This document shows positions 3,594 to 18,072 of a DNA stretch of 64,000 nucleotides, piece by piece. The position numbers were made by a program, and so were the translations under genes. Source of the DNA: a virus; IMG/VR virus record IMGVR_UViG_3300001278_000001, positions 588-64,587 of that record. One strand, 5' to 3'. A model generated the notes under the pieces. It ran no database searches and was not told the DNA's origin. It worked only from the letters and a program-made list of their open reading frames with translations. Within the stretch, counting starts at the first letter, position 1; every line of letters begins with the position of its first letter.

Positions 3594-4904
3594 TTAATTT
3601 TCTATTATTGAATAAGTTATCTCTCCACCTTCGAAATCAGGACGCTCTATCAACAATTGCAAATCATTTTCATTAGCCCAACTTTGAATCTTATCTAATG
3701 AATTTTTATCAAGATAAGAAGCGTCAAAGTGCATAGTTTTAAGTCTTCCTAAGACTAAAGATCCTAGTTTTAGAGCGCAAATATATTTTGAGGAGCTAGA
3801 TATTTGATTATCATTTAATGGAAGACCGTTGTAAGTAATACCTTCATCTGTTAATTTGAATTCCTCAGGCAGATTTGCTTTCTGTATTATTTCGGTTTTT
3901 TCTGTGGTTATTTTTTCTAATTCTTTGTTTAAAGAATCAACCTTAGATCTAGCAGTTTCACCCTCTTTAATCCAATCGTTGTATGATTTAAGGTTTACTT
4001 GATATGCGTCAGACTTAGATTTGTTGTCGTATGCGTCGTCTATTCTTTTGTCAATATCAGAAAAATCATGGTATTCAGGTTCTTTTAGAGTGGATAATTC
4101 CTTAAGTTCCTCAGGAGATTCCATTTTATCGTAAAATCTACTTATTCCCTCTAAATCTATAAATGCGGTTATTTCGTGAGCATCTTCATCTTCAAATTGT
4201 TCTATAATTGACCAATCAGCCATGAATTTATCACGTCTATCTTTTCTTGACTTTTGTATATCATTATGAGAAATAGATTCTTTTTGATTTTTTTCATTAT
4301 CAGAAACCCACTTTTCCTTAAGCTTAGTGTTTTTGTCTACTAAATTTTGCTTCTCTTTCTTAAGAGATTCTATGTTTTCAAATTCTACTTTCTCAGGTTT
4401 TTGCATTTTAATAGCTAAAAGTCTTTTAACTTCTCTATTGGCAATTGTCCTTTCGTCGAACTTCAATTTATATTTCTGATCTAATTCAGATAAATCTATT
4501 CCTAATAATTTTTGAACCTGTTTTAATTGTTCTTTCATGCTACTAGAAATAAACCTATCTATACTGAACTTAGATCCAAAATATTTCTCACCGATAGCAG
4601 ATAAGACTCCTGTAGTCATTTTAATATCATCAGCAGTGGTAAAGGAGAAGTTTTCTGTTTTTTCTGTAAAGCTCCATGAGATTTTAGATCCATCAGTTAG
4701 CTCCATAGAGTTTATTCCTTTAGATTCACCTTCTTTTACGATAATAGATGGTTTTTCTCCTCTAAATCTATCGACAAGTCCTCGTAGAACGCTAGATTTT
4801 CCTTTATTATTCCCTCCTACAATTATTGCGGAAGCTCCATTTAATTCTATATGTTGACTAGATACTGCTTTGTAATTTCTTACTGATATTGATTTTATTT
4901 TCAT
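3594..4904 (-). CDS. SMC/Rad50(SbcC)-like coiled-coil ABC ATPase
   Basis: N-term Walker A GGNNKGKSS, long central coiled coil, C-term signature-like ISSSSKY and Walker B/D-loop HFDASYLD. Confidence 0.72.
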   Translation of the reverse strand: MKIKSISVRNYKAVSSQHIELNGASAIIVGGNNKGKSSVLRGLVDRFRGEKPSIIVKEGESKGINSMELTDGSKISWSFTEKTENFSFTTADDIKMTTGVLSAIGEKYFGSKFSIDRFISSSMKEQLKQVQKLLGIDLSELDQKYKLKFDERTIANREVKRLLAIKMQKPEKVEFENIESLKKEKQNLVDKNTKLKEKWVSDNEKNQKESISHNDIQKSRKDRRDKFMADWSIIEQFEDEDAHEITAFIDLEGISRFYDKMESPEELKELSTLKEPEYHDFSDIDKRIDDAYDNKSKSDAYQVNLKSYNDWIKEGETARSKVDSLNKELEKITTEKTEIIQKANLPEEFKLTDEGITYNGLPLNDNQISSSSKYICALKLGSLVLGRLKTMHFDASYLDKNSLDKIQSWANENDLQLLIERPDFEGGEITYSIIEN

Positions 4905-5046: not shown

Positions 5047-5511
5047 TTATTTAGATAAAATATAGTGCAAAGTGCCTTTGCTACTTATGTTAAATTTTTC
5101 CATTGTTTTTTTATAAGATTTATATTTTTTGTGAAATTTTTTTATTTCATCATTGTTGTGCTTTCTTAAAAATGATGAAGCGTGTATAGCTCTTTTTATT
5201 CTTAATTGCTTAGGAATATCCATCATATTTTCAGAATGAGTTCCGACTAATATATTATTCCAAGAGTTGTCAGTTTTTATATTGTTTTTATGTCTAACCT
5301 CAATGCCTTTTTGAAATAAATTGTCTCCATACTTTTGGTAAGCCTGTAGCCTATGAGAAAAAATGTTAGTTTTTCTATTGTTTATTTTTAAGGTAAAATA
5401 TATGTACCCCCTATTGCTTAGTTTGCCTATTTTTTTATTTTGAGGATTATATAGTTCCCCTTTTTCGCAAACAAAATACCCTCTATTTTTACTTATTTCG
5501 TATTTATTCAT
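5047..5511 (-). CDS. HNH endonuclease
   Basis: SHRLQAYQKYG...EVRHKNNIKTDNSWNNILVGTHSENMMD. Confidence 0.78.
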   Translation of the reverse strand: MNKYEISKNRGYFVCEKGELYNPQNKKIGKLSNRGYIYFTLKINNRKTNIFSHRLQAYQKYGDNLFQKGIEVRHKNNIKTDNSWNNILVGTHSENMMDIPKQLRIKRAIHASSFLRKHNNDEIKKFHKKYKSYKKTMEKFNISSKGTLHYILSK

Positions 5512-5557: not shown

Positions 5558-6616
5558 TTAATTAAATGTTCCGTTAATTATATCAAATCCATCTAAAGTA
5601 TTTGCTTCGTAATAATTCCATTTACCATCAAAAACAAATCCATCTACACCTTCTATAGTCCAACCCTGCTTTTCTAGCATTGTAGACTGAACTTTTAATT
5701 GAAGTGATAATTTTGATATTTTATTGGTTGGAAGGGATATTCCTTTTGGAAGGTTTTTGAACTTAACTTTTCCGTTTTGATCGAATGAATGATTCACTTT
5801 GTAATCCTGTAATCTACAGGTTTTGTTTTCCCAACTAGTAACTAAAACTCTATCGGCTAAAGCACACATTCCATTTTCTACATCGGTTATTAATGCTTCG
5901 GGTTTCACTTCACCTTTAAATCCTAAACTATCATAGAAATCAAAAAAGTCTTGGACAATAATTTGGATCATCGGGTGGTTTATTTTAAAGCACCTGCTAT
6001 CATCTTTAGGTTTTCTGTAGTTTCTATATAGATCTTCGAATTCCAAAGCTTTATGTATTCCAGTACCAAAAGTAGAAGCTAGTTCTCCTCCTAAATTCCA
6101 AGCTTTTTTAATGGTTTTAGCTTCTATTCCCCAAGCTTTAGAACATCTTTCTATCATAAATGAATCATCAAAATCTTCAATGTATTTTTTGATATAAGTT
6201 GTAGCACCTGTTAATTTGGATTTACCATATCGATATATGTGTTCTTTCTCATTAAAGTCAACGGATATACCATCTTCATTAAATGATGGCATTGAAACCC
6301 AATCATTTTTAACTTTAGAAATCTTTAACGTACACGAAACTAATTGACCAACCTCGTGTCTTTTGAATTTTTCGTCTGAATCTTTTTTGATATAAAAATC
6401 AACGACTTCTGCCGTCATTGGGAACTTATCTCTTCCTATTTCGTATATTTCAGAATTCTTCCCGATATATCCAATTCTTTCTTTTTCCAAATAAACAGCT
6501 AAAGCGTTTTTGTCAAACTCATTTCCTGAGTCATGGGAGATCATTAGTTTAGATCCGTTAGACATTCCATTTGCTTCTGATTTGGCGAACTCTGTGCCGA
6601 CAATTTTTGACTCCAT
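5558..6616 (-). CDS. HIRAN domain fused to a PD-(D/E)XK exonuclease
   Basis: N-term HDSGNEFDKNALAVYLEKERIGYI (HIRAN-like); C-term ASTFGTGIHKALE...PEALI...ALADRVL...LQDYKVN. Confidence 0.7.
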   Translation of the reverse strand: MESKIVGTEFAKSEANGMSNGSKLMISHDSGNEFDKNALAVYLEKERIGYIGKNSEIYEIGRDKFPMTAEVVDFYIKKDSDEKFKRHEVGQLVSCTLKISKVKNDWVSMPSFNEDGISVDFNEKEHIYRYGKSKLTGATTYIKKYIEDFDDSFMIERCSKAWGIEAKTIKKAWNLGGELASTFGTGIHKALEFEDLYRNYRKPKDDSRCFKINHPMIQIIVQDFFDFYDSLGFKGEVKPEALITDVENGMCALADRVLVTSWENKTCRLQDYKVNHSFDQNGKVKFKNLPKGISLPTNKISKLSLQLKVQSTMLEKQGWTIEGVDGFVFDGKWNYYEANTLDGFDIINGTFN

Positions 6617-10005: not shown

Positions 10006-10036
10006 TTTCTAAATATTTATTTGTTTTATTTTTTTG

Positions 10037-10216
10037 TAGTACTGGCAGGAATCGAACCTGCTTGATTGGAGTTTAATCTATTGAATATTTAAGTTTTTAA
10101 TCTGATAACACCTTTAGGCTATTCACGACAGTAATCGAATCTTTTACTAATATTTAACCATTAAACCAACCTATAAGACATATCCACTTTTGCGTACACC
10201 ATTACACCACAGTACT
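10037..10216 (-). ncRNA. tRNA-like RNA with a 130-nt structured insert replacing the anticodon/variable region
   Basis: Acceptor AGTACTG/CAGTACT (7/7 WC), U8, D-arm GTGT-AATGGTGT-ACGC, T-arm GCAGG-TTCGATT-CCTGC, discriminator A. No CCA encoded and no canonical anticodon arm. Confidence 0.8.
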
Positions 10217-10219
10217 TTT

Positions 10220-12887: not shown

Positions 12888-13350
12888 TTAATCTCTGTTT
12901 AGGCAGGATTTACAATCCACCTTGTTAATATTATTTGTCATTTGTAGATTATCGGAAATTTTACCGCATCTACTTTCCGTCCAAACTTTTTTTGCATCTA
13001 CTATAGAGTAGCTTCCATAATGTGTTTTCATAGTTTCGCGGGATTATTGAATTGATTTAGTTACTTCGAGAATCCAAAAAAATAATTGAACAATAATCCA
13101 CGAAAAAGCGAAAATAAATGGCGAAAAAATTATTGGCAGTATTATATACCAGTACTTTATAATATATCTCATAGTTTCGCGGATTAATGAAAGTAACTTT
13201 TGTTTAGTTTAACATGCAGTCGGGCAAATAAAGCGTCCTTTTTATTAAGTGGTGTTTTCCGTTTTGATCTTCTTCGTATAAATCTAAAGAAGCGACAAAA
13301 GGGTTTACATAATTTGTTACAACTGTTTGTTTTGTCTTTTCTTTAGACAT
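12888..13350 (-). CDS. Three small ORFs below the track cutoff: 13204-13350 (48 aa), 13044-13172 (42 aa, hydrophobic) and 12888-13031 (47 aa, Cys-containing)
   Basis: Hand translation: MSKEKTKQ..., MRYIIKYWYIILPIIFSPFIFAFSW..., MKTHYGSY...CKSCLNRD. They fill the apparent gap in frame with operon packing. Confidence 0.6.
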
Positions 13351-13562
13351 TATTTTTTGTATTTAAAAATTGTTATTATACCTATTCCCGATCTTTTTTG
13401 TAAAACATTAAGCGAGTGACACAAGCAAAAAGCTTGTATTTGGAAAAGCTGAGTAGTTTTTATTTCTTTAGAATGAAATTTTACGCAATCTTTTTCAACT
13501 ACTGGACTAACTCCAAAAATTCTAATTAGTTCGATTCTTAAAAATTCTACATTTTTTTGCAT
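13350..13562 (-). CDS. Hypothetical early protein (first gene after pistol 1)
   Basis: ORF track. Confidence 0.6.
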   Translation of the reverse strand: MQKNVEFLRIELIRIFGVSPVVEKDCVKFHSKEIKTTQLFQIQAFCLCHSLNVLQKRSGIGIITIFKYKK

Positions 13563-13584: not shown

Positions 13585-13650
13585 TAATACCCTGCGGAAA
13601 ACCGCAGACGCTTAGGGCTTAAATTACTTTTTATACTCGCCCTAACGAGT
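13585..13650 (-). ncRNA. Pistol self-cleaving ribozyme, copy 1
   Basis: ACTCG-TTAGGG-CGAGT ATAAAAAG TAAT TTAAG CCCTAA GCGT CTGCGG-TTTT-CCGCAG G GT ATTA: P1, pseudoknot TTAGGG/CCCTAA, P2 TAAT/ATTA, P3, GU cleavage site at 13590/13589. Confidence 0.93.
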
Positions 13651-13651
13651 G

Positions 13652-15447
13652 TTATTTGAATTCAACTATTTGCACATTTACGATTGAAAAAATATCTCTA
13701 TTTTCTCCAAAGTTTACAAAAATATCGCCTTCTTCATCTTGTTTAACTTTGTATTCGCTCCAATCATTGTTTAAAAGATACTCTAAAACTTGGCTTTTGT
13801 CATTGGTTAAAAATACTGGATAATCTTTTCGTCCGTTTCCTATGCTTACTACTGTTAATCCGTTCATTTTCTTTATTTTTTAAGGTTATTATTTATATTT
13901 CATCTATATAGATGTGGTTAATGTGTGAATTTATTTTTCTATTTATCTGAGATTTAGCCTTTTTTCGTGCTTCTGCTTTGCTTTTGGCTTTTACTTGAAT
14001 TTCCATTGAATAAAAATCAATGTCTACAGAATAGGTTTTATTTTCTTTTTTTGCCATAACTAATTATTTTTTTTATACCTACCTATTGCATAAGGCTCAA
14101 AATTAAATTCTCTGTGAACTAGAATGTATCGATAGTTTTCAAAATCATTTAAGTAGGTTGTGACTTTTTCCCAACGATTATTAATTACTTCTCGAAATTC
14201 TAAACCCTTATTTCTAGCATTTAATAAATTTTTAGCTGTCGGTTCGTCATTCATTTTATTAACTAATAAATTAAGTTTTTCGCCTTTTTTTATATTATGT
14301 TTTATTTTATTACTGTATGGCGTTGGTTGTCTGTCCTTGTATTGTTCTGATGTTTCCCAAAATTTCATATCTAATAAGATTTAATAGTTCTATTTAGTAT
14401 TTTTAAAACCTTCTTGGCTCTTTCTACCTCTTTAGGTTCTAAGTGATTGCCATTTAATAATTGTTTTATAATTTCTAAATCTTTCATAATTGTTTTTTTA
14501 TTGTTCGTTTTTCCAGTCTTCGTAATAACCTAAATACACCATACAAAAGTCAATTATTTCTTCTTTTTTTATGCTAAAAAAATTTAATTCTTTTATGTAT
14601 GTTTTTCTTGCTTCCTTCTCTAGTCTTTCAAATCTTTCATATTTTGGCTTAGTTCCGAAAAAACCAGTATTTTTAATGTCTAAAAAAATATCGTCTCTTA
14701 AATTTGCTAATTCTCTAGTGTTTTCAGTAAATAATATCAAATCATTTGAAGCGTGATATTTAGCACCTGTTTCGTAAGTTCCCATATAATTATATATTAT
14801 AAATTTTCTTTTTGAGTTTCCCAAAACTCCAAAAATTCAGGAGTATGACCATTAAGAGCTACGCAGTTATATTGCTCTAAGTCTTCAATGTCTTCAATTA
14901 TACATTTAGTAGATCCGCCATAATAATCCAAAGACGTAAACAAATCGAAGCTTCTTTTTTCTACTCTTCGCCTAGATATTTCTTTCATAGAAACACCTCC
15001 AAAATAATGGTGTTCGCTACTTGTCACACCTCTCATAGAATACCCTACAATATCATCAGAATAAAATTTAATAGGCATAGTTATACGTATATTAAAATCT
15101 TTTGCGGTATATTCAAGTATAACCCTACCACCTGTGTTAATATTACTTTCGGTAAGCAATAAATAAGGACTAAAATGTTTCTTTTTCCCTTTGTAGTCTA
15201 TATCCTTAGTTAGTCTAGTAGCAGGATATTTATTTGTTATTTCTTTTAATATGCTTGATATTTCCGAAATCTTAACTTTTTCTAAGTCGATAAATACAGT
15301 TGTATCTATATTATTAATGTTCACGAACATTTTTAAATTATAAGAAATACTACTTTGTATTTCCTGTTCCATTTCAAAAACTAACATTTCTTTAGCTTGT
15401 TTTTTCTTTAAAATTTCTAACGGTGTTAACTCTTTTGAATCTTGCAT
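13652..15447 (-). CDS. Cluster of early hypothetical ORFs (13652-13867, 13893-14057, 14060-14368, 14371-14487, 14498-14824, 14797-15447)
   Basis: ORF track plus two hand-translated small ORFs (MAKKENKT..., MKDLEIIK...). Confidence 0.6.
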
Positions 15448-15471
15448 AATTACATTTTTAGATTATTAATT

Positions 15472-15537
15472 TCTTACCCCTTACCGAAGTAAGGACGCTC
15501 TAAGCTTAAAAGACTTTTTTAAATCGCTTAGACGATT
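15472..15537 (-). ncRNA. Pistol self-cleaving ribozyme, copy 2
   Basis: AATCG-TCTAAG-CGATT TAAAAAAG TCTT TTAAG CTTAGA GCGT CCTTAC-TTCG-GTAAGG G GT AAGA: pseudoknot TCTAAG/CTTAGA, P2 TCTT/AAGA, cleavage at 15477/15476. Confidence 0.93.
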
Positions 15538-15667
15538 ATACACTATTTGCTTTTTTAATTGCGTAATACAATTTATTAATTTCTCGCTGTACTTCTGCTT
15601 TCTTAATCTTCCAATAATCCAGTTTAGATTCAAGCTCTTTTAATTCGGGGTTTATTTTTTTAGCCAT
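15536..15667 (-). CDS. 43-aa basic helical peptide (below track cutoff)
   Basis: MAKKINPELKELESKLDYWKIKKAEVQREINKLYYAIKKANSV*; its stop codon overlaps P1 of pistol 2. Confidence 0.6.
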   Translation of the reverse strand: MAKKINPELKELESKLDYWKIKKAEVQREINKLYYAIKKANSV

Positions 15668-15668
15668 A

Positions 15669-15932
15669 CTATTTAATTATTACGGTAACAGGAGACAAAC
15701 CTCTAACACGAACAATATATTTACCGCTTGGTAAATCTGACATATCAAATCGGTTATCGTGGCGTATAGTAATCAACTGACCGCTTACCGCATCCAGTAA
15801 ATAAGTTTTCACACTCTCAACCTTATTAATAATTATTTCTTTACCGTTTACAGAAACTAACGGCTTTACCTCTTTAGCGTTAATACTCAATGAAGACACA
15901 ACCAACGCCAATACTAATAATAAATTTTTCAT
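15669..15932 (-). CDS. Signal peptide plus a lone T9SS type-A C-terminal sorting domain (Por secretion tail-like)
   Basis: MKNLLLVLALVVSSLSINA signal; C-term FDMSDLPSGKYIVRV...VTVIIK matches the T9SS CTD pattern iD.s.L..G.Y.v.v.....k.iK. Confidence 0.68.
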   Translation of the reverse strand: MKNLLLVLALVVSSLSINAKEVKPLVSVNGKEIIINKVESVKTYLLDAVSGQLITIRHDNRFDMSDLPSGKYIVRVRGLSPVTVIIK

Positions 15933-15948
15933 AATACTTGTTTTATTT

Positions 15949-16013
15949 TCCTACCGTCCGAATTAACGGACACGCTTAGAGCTTAAAGGACTTTTTAACG
16001 TCGCTCTAACGAC
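15949..16013 (-). ncRNA. Pistol self-cleaving ribozyme, copy 3
   Basis: GTCG-TTAGAG-CGAC GTTAAAAAG TCCT TTAAG CTCTAA GCGT GTCCG-TTAATT-CGGAC G GT AGGA: pseudoknot TTAGAG/CTCTAA, P2 TCCT/AGGA, cleavage at 15954/15953. Confidence 0.92.
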
Positions 16014-16306
16014 TTAAGATTTACTATATAATTAAACACCGATTCGTGTAATTTTTCAATAGTTAAATCCGTACAAAAAACAGCATCAATCTCATCTATA
16101 TAAGATAAAAGATTTTCATTATTAGCGTCTTTAATTCTTACAACTACGGGAATCAACCAATCAAAACTATTGTGATACCGCAACATATCCTCATTAATTA
16201 CAGTTCCCAAAAACAAAACTGATTTTTTATTAAACCCCCAATTTATTTTATGCCCTTCAAATTCGGCAATTACTTTGTTTCTTTCTATTATCTCGTCTAA
16301 ACTCAT
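15995..16306 (-). CDS. Conserved Bacteroidota-phage hypothetical protein
   Basis: NKVIAEFEG...LRYHNSFDWLIPVVVRI motif; its last codons overlap pistol 3. Confidence 0.65.
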   Translation of the reverse strand: MSLDEIIERNKVIAEFEGHKINWGFNKKSVLFLGTVINEDMLRYHNSFDWLIPVVVRIKDANNENLLSYIDEIDAVFCTDLTIEKLHESVFNYIVNLKSLERR

Positions 16307-16310
16307 AATC

Positions 16311-16532
16311 CTAGTATTTACTAATTAAATCACATTCCATTGTATAAGCATCATACTTATACTTTTTTGTCACACCGTCAATTGTAGTAATAAACACATA
16401 TTGATCTGTAGGGATTTCCATTTCATCAACTGGCAATACTTTAATTGCGACAATATCCGAGTTAATACTATTTGTAAACCCTACACATAGAGTAAACACA
16501 AACCCAACAACTAACATTAATAAATTTTTCAT
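16311..16532 (-). CDS. Small exported protein, first gene of the leftward arm
   Basis: Signal-like MKNLLMLVVGFVFTLCVG. Confidence 0.6.
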   Translation of the reverse strand: MKNLLMLVVGFVFTLCVGFTNSINSDIVAIKVLPVDEMEIPTDQYVFITTIDGVTKKYKYDAYTMECDLISKY

Positions 16533-17373
16533 CTTCTTTGTTTTATTATTTCTATACTGCTAATATACAACTATTAGTTACATATACTACTATAAATATG
16601 AATAAAAATAGTAAATAGTATCTATTTATAATCATTCTAAGTAACAGGGGATTAGTATATACTTCACACCACAGAAATACAAAATGCATAGTACAACTAA
16701 ATATACCCCAAAGGAACTACAACGCATATACAACATAGATAGTACAACATAAACACACAACTACTACAAATACATAGTACATCATTACTTATGATTTAGT
16801 TATTATTTTTTTTGTTACAAGGGCTTAGATCAAATAAACACTTAAATATCAATGTTTTAGCGAAAAACTGTCAGCGTATACGGATAAATGTACAGGATAG
16901 TTTTAAATACGCTCAGCATTTGGCGTTCGTTGGGTGAATTTTACCTATATGGAGAGTATATAGAGAAAACAGAGTACACCAACAGATGTATTATTGAAAA
17001 GTAGTATAAAAGTGAATACGCAAAATAAGCCCTTCTAAGAAAGCTAAAAGTTTTTGACATACAAATACATTAGGAAGGGGGTGTGGGTTCAGGAAAACGT
17101 ATTGCCCTAGCTAAATTATACGCATATATCGCCTACTAAGCCTAGACATATAATTGAATACATATAACACAAAAAAGTATCTCTACAGAGAGGATATACA
17201 TATAAATACAAACCATAAATAGCTGTTAAGCTCAGTGTTTTGGATATATATTACTGATTGTTAGCGATTAATAATTTAAAATAGTTCACATTATATGTGT
17301 GATATATTGTCATTATTACACTATTTTCTACATTTAAAGTGATATATTTGTAAAAAGAATAATAAGGGAATAA
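16533..17373. other. 840-bp non-coding divergence region (candidate genome terminus/packaging or origin region)
   Basis: No ORF; transcription switches direction; C/A-rich G-poor tract at ~16660-16785 with repeated ATAGTACA; G-rich GGAAGGGGGTGTGGG at ~17073-17087. Confidence 0.5.
17330..17350 (+). promoter_or_regulatory. TATATTTG promoter with adjacent ACATTTAAAGTGA box
   Basis: TAnnTTTG at 17343-17350; the box is repeated at 18077-18089. Confidence 0.55.
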
Positions 17374-18072
17374 ATGGATAAAAAAAAGATATATACCTAC
17401 CTATTTACTGATGGTAAGTATTATAAGATAGGTAGAAGTAAAGATCCCAAAAAAAGATTATATGCTTTTAAGACAGGTAATATAAATTGTGAATTGGTTT
17501 GTTTTGGATTAGGTGTTTCTGAGAGGGAGCTACATAAAACATATTCTGATAAACGCGTAAATGGGGAATGGTTTGCTTTAGACACTAATGATGTAATGGT
17601 TATATCCTCCAAAATACAGTCAAGTGAAATAATCGGAGTTAATGATTATTCAAATAGTGTAGAGGAGGATTATCGTAAATTCATAGAATCTTACAAAAGT
17701 AAAAAATGGCATAAGTCATACTCTCTTCATAATTCAGACCTTTACACCTATTCTAGCAATAAGGGTAAATTCGGAATGTCTAATCTTCTTTTAGATTTAT
17801 TGGTTAATGATTACACACCTATTGGCTGTAGATTATTCTTATCTATTGTAAATAAACTGGAACAATCTTATGATTTTGAAAAAAGCGCAGTGGTGTATTT
17901 GAAATATCCACTTTTTAAAGACACTTGTAGTGTGAATGTTTTCAGTCTTAATTTAAAAAAATTCATTTCGGATAAATTGCTGATAGAAACTCCAAAGAAA
18001 AAATACTATATAGTTAACCCTATGTATATTAATAAATTCTTCAAAGAAAAAATAGATAAGAAAAATGAATAA
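17374..18072 (+). CDS. T5orf172/GIY-YIG-like domain fused to a RepL-like winged-helix domain
   Basis: YKIGRSKDPKKRL...ERELHKTYSDKRVNGEWF; C-term KYYIVNPMY. Confidence 0.72.
   Translation: MDKKKIYTYLFTDGKYYKIGRSKDPKKRLYAFKTGNINCELVCFGLGVSERELHKTYSDKRVNGEWFALDTNDVMVISSKIQSSEIIGVNDYSNSVEEDYRKFIESYKSKKWHKSYSLHNSDLYTYSSNKGKFGMSNLLLDLLVNDYTPIGCRLFLSIVNKLEQSYDFEKSAVVYLKYPLFKDTCSVNVFSLNLKKFISDKLLIETPKKKYYIVNPMYINKFFKEKIDKKNE

Follow-up and report, generated by a model that had tools for sequence, protein, structure and literature searches.

The sequence analyzed here is a 64,000-nucleotide stretch of a virus genome (positions 588 to 64,587 of IMG/VR record IMGVR_UViG_3300001278_000001; "the window" denotes this whole stretch), and the elements of interest are three pistol ribozymes located on the minus strand within a leftward operon of small genes. 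The complete record is 70,806 bp long with a GC content of 30%, and the window represents most of it. The genome encodes a portal protein, a large terminase (TerL), and virion proteins. A search of the 64-kb window with Rfam cmscan returned exactly three matches above the gathering threshold. All were to the Pistol family (RF02679, gathering cut-off 34.5 bits), all were on the minus strand, and all were full length (model positions 1-68 of 68), with E-values between 5e-10 and 6.7e-08. Copy 1 (13585-13650, minus strand) scored 67.0 bits (E 5e-10) and has the P1 strands ACTCG/CGAGT, the pseudoknot TTAGGG/CCCTAA, and the P2 strands TAAT/ATTA. Copy 2 (15472-15537, minus strand) scored 63.2 bits (E 3.8e-09), with P1 AATCG/CGATT, pseudoknot TCTAAG/CTTAGA, and P2 TCTT/AAGA. 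Copy 3 (15949-16014, minus strand), which is the first in transcription order, scored 57.7 bits (E 6.7e-08), with P1 AGTCG/CGACG, pseudoknot TTAGAG/CTCTAA, and P2 TCCT/AGGA. An initial annotation of this DNA had proposed three minus-strand pistols and had named the Rfam model scan as the check; the scores of 58-67 bits, all above the 34.5-bit cut-off, bear that proposal out. Its boundaries were exact for copies 1 and 2, and copy 3 begins one base further 5' than it had stated (16014 instead of 16013). A permissive scan (E<=1) added no further ribozyme of any Rfam class in the window, a search model made from these three sequences gave no fourth pistol, and the Rfam search repeated over the whole 70.8-kb genome gave the same three pistols only.

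Each copy was parsed element by element. P1 was paired at 5/5, 5/5, and 4/5 positions in copies 1, 2, and 3, respectively. The pseudoknot, which links the P1 loop to the P2-P3 junction (6/6), and P2 (4/4) were fully paired in every copy, each with three different sequences, and P3 was a different stem of 6-7 bp in each. The single-stranded blocks were invariant in the three copies, namely the end of the A-rich linker (AAAAAG), TTAAG, GCGT, and the G-T junction. Mutagenesis and crystallography of env25 have placed purine-32, the G33-C41 pair, G40, G42, and the scissile G-U in the active site and have shown that they are needed for activity (PMC6154101), and the AAA linker and core residues are among the conserved features of pistols (PMC6154101, PMC4604425). 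A32, G33, G40, C41, G42, A19-A21, and the G-U junction were invariant across the three window copies, and the core and A19-A21 residues were likewise invariant in 15 copies from five phages, with the exception of an A/G alternation at position 32. Covariation was assessed in an alignment of 98 phage pistols (93 distinct) that included the three window copies. Among the 93 distinct sequences, 97.9% of the alignment cells were paired, compared with 31-44% when the partners were slid, and the pseudoknot, which was left out of the aligning model, was 99.3% paired with compensatory changes at 5/6 pairs. The parse and the alignment thus agree, helix by helix, with the order of parts and the pairing despite sequence change that the initial annotation had described. 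Catalytic residues have been retained, and the helices have stayed fully paired while their sequences changed in a compensatory way at many places, which points to purifying selection on activity. The three elements are pistol ribozymes on every sequence and structure criterion that was applied, with catalysis itself predicted.

In all three copies the two nucleotides that join P3 to the 3' strand of P2 are G-U, and cleavage is predicted at this position. The predicted cuts, all on the minus strand, fall between G13590 and U13589 in copy 1 (27 nt from the ATG at 13562), between G15477 and U15476 in copy 2 (29 nt from the ATG at 15447), and between G15954 and U15953 in copy 3 (21 nt from the ATG at 15932). 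The computed positions and leader lengths match those given previously. The placement of every copy at a gene junction, also proposed then, was confirmed from the list of open reading frames (ORFs) and the distances to stop and start codons. Copy 1 begins 1 nt past the stop codon of the ORF at 13652-13867, copy 2 overlaps the TAA of the ORF at 15536-15667 by 2 nt, and the first 20 nt of copy 3 are the last codons and the stop of the ORF at 15995-16306. The copies are co-oriented with the genes, lie within 2.4 kb, and are each bounded by a stop codon on one side and the following ATG on the other; a single block of small genes therefore carries at least two co-oriented ribozymes at intercistronic junctions. 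No intercistronic gap in the operon is larger than the three that house the pistols. The leaders between cut and start codon are rich in A+U (81-96%) and contain no Shine-Dalgarno sequence. To our knowledge, Bacteroidota mRNAs lack Shine-Dalgarno sequences, and the window leaders agree with this.

The segment upstream of copy 3 (15995-16532, minus strand) contains the first two genes of the operon, which encode 73 aa (16311-16532) and 103 aa (15995-16306). Between copies 3 and 2 (15536-15932, minus strand), ORFs of 87 and 43 aa are present, and the predicted cleaved RNA is 477 nt. Six packed ORFs of 216, 95, 38, 102, 54, and 71 aa fill the segment between copies 2 and 1 (13652-15447, minus strand), with a predicted cleaved RNA of 1887 nt. 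The first ORF after copy 1 encodes 70 aa (13350-13562, minus strand), and leftward of it the operon continues with genes for an Erf-like annealing protein, an ATPase, an exonuclease, and replication initiation. No significant PHROGs or Pfam family was found for the small genes flanking or between the pistols. The 54-aa ORF is conserved in the related genome G001. The 87-aa ORF directly after copy 3 (15669-15932, minus strand) has an N-terminal hydrophobic leader; Pfam does not establish its earlier reading as a type IX secretion system (T9SS) protein, as the match to the T9SS sorting domain (Por_Secre_tail) reached 15.2 bits where 27 are required and that to Y_Y_Y was likewise below threshold. 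Further along the operon, a 214-nt gap (10006-10219) separates the Erf-like gene from the ATPase gene; ARAGORN identified no transfer RNA or transfer-messenger RNA in it and Rfam gave nothing at E<=1. Two HNH_3 endonuclease ORFs lie inside the replication module (1911-2363 and 5047-5511, both minus strand), one of which also has a NUMOD4 domain. An ORF with a T5orf172/MUG113 domain (17374-18072, plus strand) is the first gene of the neighboring rightward operon. All three are candidate homing-endonuclease-type insertions.

The large terminase shares 49.5% identity with its counterpart in Tenacibaculum phage Gundel_1 and approximately 28-29% with those of Cellulophaga phages phi18:3, phi19:3, and others, all of which are Pachyviridae. 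By this measure, the phage is related to Gundel_1 and to the Cellulophaga Baltivirus phages (Pachyviridae). Because the terminase relatives are Tenacibaculum and Cellulophaga phages, the host is most likely a marine member of the Flavobacteriaceae. No near-identical phage record was found in INPHARED, and the search of public sequencing runs gave one run with this phage, a DNA run from an algae metagenome.

A divergent, ORF-poor region of approximately 840 nt (16533-17373) separates the pistol operon, which runs leftward, from a rightward operon starting at 17374. Short direct repeats around a ATAGTACA core are located in this region at 16668-16785. By collinearity with Gundel_1, the region may hold early promoters and perhaps a physical genome end. 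The 14-mer AATAGTTGTATATT (16562-16575, minus strand) is unique in the window and precedes the first ATG of the operon by approximately 30 nt. The related genomes G001 and G053 carry it unchanged in the equivalent position (L136:5958-5975; L155:396-450), approximately 30-45 nt before the first small gene, and it is a putative promoter or leader element for this operon. In Gundel_1, the terminal repeat of which has been mapped, the equivalent operon starts approximately 1 kb from the left end and the single pistol is 2.5 kb from that end; gene order is collinear between the window and Gundel_1 from the small-gene operon to the terminase. Judging from the divergent ORF-poor region, the conserved upstream element, and the synteny with Gundel_1, the pistol operon is probably expressed early. 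A scan for sigma-70 promoters gave fewer sites than expected from shuffled sequence, and scans for the Bacteroidetes -33/-7 and TAnnTTTG motifs were not above chance. The sole terminator-like match on the minus (operon) strand is P3 of copy 1, and between the copies there is no terminator-like site other than P3 and no second AATAGTTGTATATT.

The syntenic small-gene region was compared among relatives, and all pistol counts given for them refer to this region. Genome G001 (TerL identity 67%, 75.8 kb) has five pistols with leaders of 26, 25, 24, 101, and 21 nt, and G053 (TerL 64%) has one. A single pistol is present in Gundel_1 between gp005 and gp006 (leader 24 nt) and in phi19:3 (TerL approximately 28%) between gp046 and gp045 (leader 23 nt). 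The 5'-OH is predicted at U2638 of NC_062747.1 in Gundel_1 and at U20373 of NC_021789.1 (minus strand) in phi19:3. The junction layout of the window thus recurs in its relatives, and across this clade 9/10 leaders are 21-29 nt long. No pistol was found in phi18:3 (TerL approximately 28%) or in G002, the closest relative by terminase (TerL 74%), in which the syntenic region is present (approximately 67-77 kb of the record, L144-L147) and the small genes are unrelated to those of the window. Searches for other Rfam ribozymes found none in the early regions of G001, Gundel_1, phi19:3, phi18:3, and the unrelated phage G039, nor in 79.7 kb of G002; the pistol-less relatives thus show no replacement by another known class.

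A scan of IMG/VR with a core pattern, which by design ascertains the sample by that pattern, yielded at least 118 loci, and the figures that follow are for the matches listed. Fifty records were searched whole; one pistol was present in 43 of these, two in 6, and five in 1. For approximately 90 pistols, the upstream stop codon was within -30 to +15 nt of P1 in 76% (24% at random positions), and the next start codon was 15-60 nt past the cut in 52% (22% at random). Flanking ORFs were mostly singletons (71/86 downstream and 70/86 upstream). Linkage to one gene family was ruled out, since the proteins beside approximately 100 pistols were almost all singletons. With unrelated flanking genes, the function of the element is independent of its neighbors. 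The window copies are typical of the class in stop spacing, start spacing, and unrelated flanks. Phage G039 has five pistols at consecutive junctions (L138, G039:C1:13516-15910, minus strand). Its ribozymes and leaders are much more G+C-rich than those of the window, and every copy is followed by the same Shine-Dalgarno-like leader, 31-39 nt long and ending in CCAAGGGAGAGAACATG. One G039 copy (14379-14458) has A-U at the cleavage position and no G-U. Contig L078 carries three pistols (4261-4328, 5411-5480, and 6241-6310, minus strand) spaced approximately 0.8-1.1 kb apart, and the contigs with two pistols include L036, L040, L064, L076, L090, and L094. Arrays of at least three pistols are a minority that recurs independently among the matches listed.

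It is likely, on the strength of the intact cores and the junction placement, that the three elements are competent pistols that cleave themselves constitutively at three junctions of the leftward small-gene operon mRNA. As RNA polymerase passes a junction, the element of approximately 66 nt would fold, probably co-transcriptionally, into P1, the 6-bp loop pseudoknot, P3, and the 4-bp P2, and the 2'-OH of the junction G would attack the G-U phosphodiester. Cleavage by pistols yields a 2',3'-cyclic phosphate and a 5'-OH (PMC4604425), and the same chemistry is expected of the window copies because of their family membership. The upstream RNA would retain nearly the entire compact ribozyme, including the GC-rich P3 hairpin, and would end in a 2',3'-cyclic phosphate. 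Tethered by the 4-bp P2 alone, the downstream RNA would leave with a 5'-OH and a short, unstructured, A-rich leader of 21-29 nt that abuts the next start codon. The operon RNA would in this way be divided into about four pieces of 2, 2, 6, and many genes, and the stability and translation of each block would be uncoupled from those of its neighbors with no host RNase involved. The benefit that we infer is twofold, a protected 3' end on the upstream RNA and a defined 5' end on the downstream RNA that would resist 5'-monophosphate-dependent decay.

Several observations weigh against this interpretation. The element is dispensable in the lineage, as G002 (74% TerL identity) and phi18:3 are without a pistol; its absence from G002, the closest relative, marks the array as an accessory rather than a constant part of the design. 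The public-run searches listed no RNA run for this phage, and co-transcription of the blocks, cleavage in vivo, and the early timing are inferred. With sigma-70 and TAnnTTTG scans not above chance, promoters of Flavobacteriia or of the phage itself were not callable, and internal promoters may therefore be present. Finally, folding predictions ruled out unmasking of the start codon as a general mechanism, since the unpaired probability near the ATG was alike for uncleaved and cleaved RNAs in 8/9 cases; predicted accessibility of the start region is not systematically changed on cleavage, and a benefit is not explained by simple unmasking.

The close approach of the ribozymes to the upstream stop codons allows a refinement of the constitutive model, in which a terminating ribosome would cover P1 and the pseudoknot loop, so that the cut, no longer constitutive, would be a readout of upstream translation or take its timing from it. 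The stop-to-P1 distances are +1, -2, and -20 nt in the window and -24 to +7 nt in most of the relatives' copies, with copy G039a (+30 nt) as an exception, and the general enrichment of stop codons near P1 in the IMG/VR pistols fits as well. However, genome compaction alone would pack the genes as tightly, and pistols cleave at approximately 10 per min at physiological Mg2+ (PMC4604425), against which occlusion by a ribosome is transient. Such gating is considered unlikely. Similarly doubtful is the proposal that the pistol cut serves as a translation device, whereby, in phages of Bacteroidota, a free 5'-OH placed 21-29 nt before the ATG by way of an A-rich leader would let ribosomes load on the downstream cistron. 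It would be a bacterial counterpart of the ribozyme-dependent initiation found in fungal and plant RNA viruses (PMC13725137). The narrow range of leader lengths in the clade fits this idea, but plain compaction would give the same pattern.

A different view is that the ribozymes are passenger elements of gene-cassette turnover, which would travel with cassettes or mark their borders, cleave harmlessly, and confer little or no benefit. The patchy counts in the window phage and its close relatives (3, 5, 1, 1, 1, 0, and 0) agree with such a history. So does the comparison of the window genome (G000) with G001, because the genes between copies are non-homologous although the region is syntenic. 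The pistol-bearing stretches of the two genomes have one small gene in common, with two more matches further downstream, and copy 1 of the window has no positional counterpart in G001. Identity of the core among the window copies is 67-81%, no higher than their identity to the copies of other phages, and copy 1 is closest to that of Gundel_1 (86%). Copies within the genome are therefore as diverged as copies between genomes, which rules out recent intragenomic duplication and tells against the passenger view. The same is true of the absence of any particular flanking gene family linked to pistols, and the invariant stretches across copies are so short that they would leave little scope for homologous recombination. 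The purifying selection implied by the compensatory changes is also difficult to reconcile with harmless passengers, and this explanation is judged improbable. On these comparisons, the arrays are old and selectively maintained as active folds, and are gained and lost with the fast-changing small genes.

Very improbable is the ligation of the cleaved ends by an RtcB-type ligase, which would join 5'-OH and 2',3'-cyclic phosphate ends into circular or respliced phage RNAs: the internal segments (477 and 1887 nt) would bear exactly the ends that RtcB joins and a Bacteroidota control genome encodes RtcB, but the RtcB, Rnl-type RNA ligase (RNA_ligase), and 2H phosphoesterase (2',5'-RNA-ligase) families are absent from the phage genome, so that the gene content lends the idea of circular RNA no support, and when Perreault et al. 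looked for splicing or circularization of hammerhead arrays, no such products were detected (PMC3088659).

Self-cleavage at intercistronic junctions, the preferred reading, has parallels in several known systems. In the early RNA of phage T7, host RNase III cuts a double-stranded hairpin and leaves a 5'-phosphate and a 3'-OH. The window operon resembles this processing in the intercistronic position of the cuts and in the hairpin with which the upstream mRNA would end, whereas the window RNA would cut itself and leave 2',3'-cyclic phosphate and 5'-OH termini. In RiboJ and other synthetic ribozyme insulators, a self-cleaving ribozyme is placed shortly before a start codon. Ribozyme-dependent translation initiation has been reported for RNA viruses infecting fungi and plants (Lopez-Galiano et al. 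2026, PMC13725137), and the window shares with these viruses and with RiboJ a ribozyme, a few to tens of nt before the start codon, placed so as to set the 5' end of the translated RNA. The viral systems are eukaryotic and cap-independent and RiboJ is engineered; a benefit of the cut to translation in a phage or bacterium would be an extension by analogy.

The pistol class itself was reportedly described by Weinberg in 2015, and its representatives include env25 and the pistols of Lysinibacillus sphaericus and Alistipes putredinis. The window copies have P1, the 6-bp pseudoknot, the A-rich linker, P2, the core, P3, and the G-U junction, and show no structural difference from the class. Their context differs, being a Pachyviridae-like phage that probably infects marine Flavobacteriaceae and has three copies in one operon. 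The class came to light in searches around other ribozymes and phage-associated genes, and it has been called phage-associated since its first description (PMC4604425, Harris 2015). Among the prophage hammerheads reported in 2011, several flank single genes or short blocks, and it was proposed that long phage RNAs are processed by them into gene- or operon-length mRNAs; triple arrays of these hammerheads were cleaved in vitro, and the Agrobacterium tumefaciens array also in vivo (PMC3088659). The idea of polycistron processing returns in a 2019 review, which calls proof outstanding (PMC6765202). No literature linking Cellulophaga or Tenacibaculum phages to ribozymes was found. The initial annotation had presented a regular intergenic pistol array as a strong lead, which overstated its novelty, since phage-associated pistols (PMC4604425) and prophage hammerhead arrays with the same processing hypothesis (PMC3088659) were already published.

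The locus offers an array made up of pistols only, in a clade of phages some of which are in culture, with hosts in which translation is not led by Shine-Dalgarno sequences. Gundel_1 and phi19:3 (one pistol each) and phi18:3 (none) form a natural presence/absence series at an equivalent position in tractable hosts, which permits direct tests of the effect of the cut on mRNA stability, downstream translation, and fitness. The stereotyped geometry, with the ribozyme at the upstream stop codon and an A-rich leader of 21-29 nt, provides concrete quantities to perturb. Like the clustered hammerheads (PMC3088659), the window has several co-oriented ribozymes in a phage gene block in which the identity of the flanked genes is not conserved; unlike them, its ribozymes belong to the pistol class, and cleavage, seen for the hammerheads, is predicted for the window copies. 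The locus is a clean further example of the known arrangement of ribozyme-punctuated phage operons, to which it adds material while leaving the picture of phage ribozyme function unchanged.

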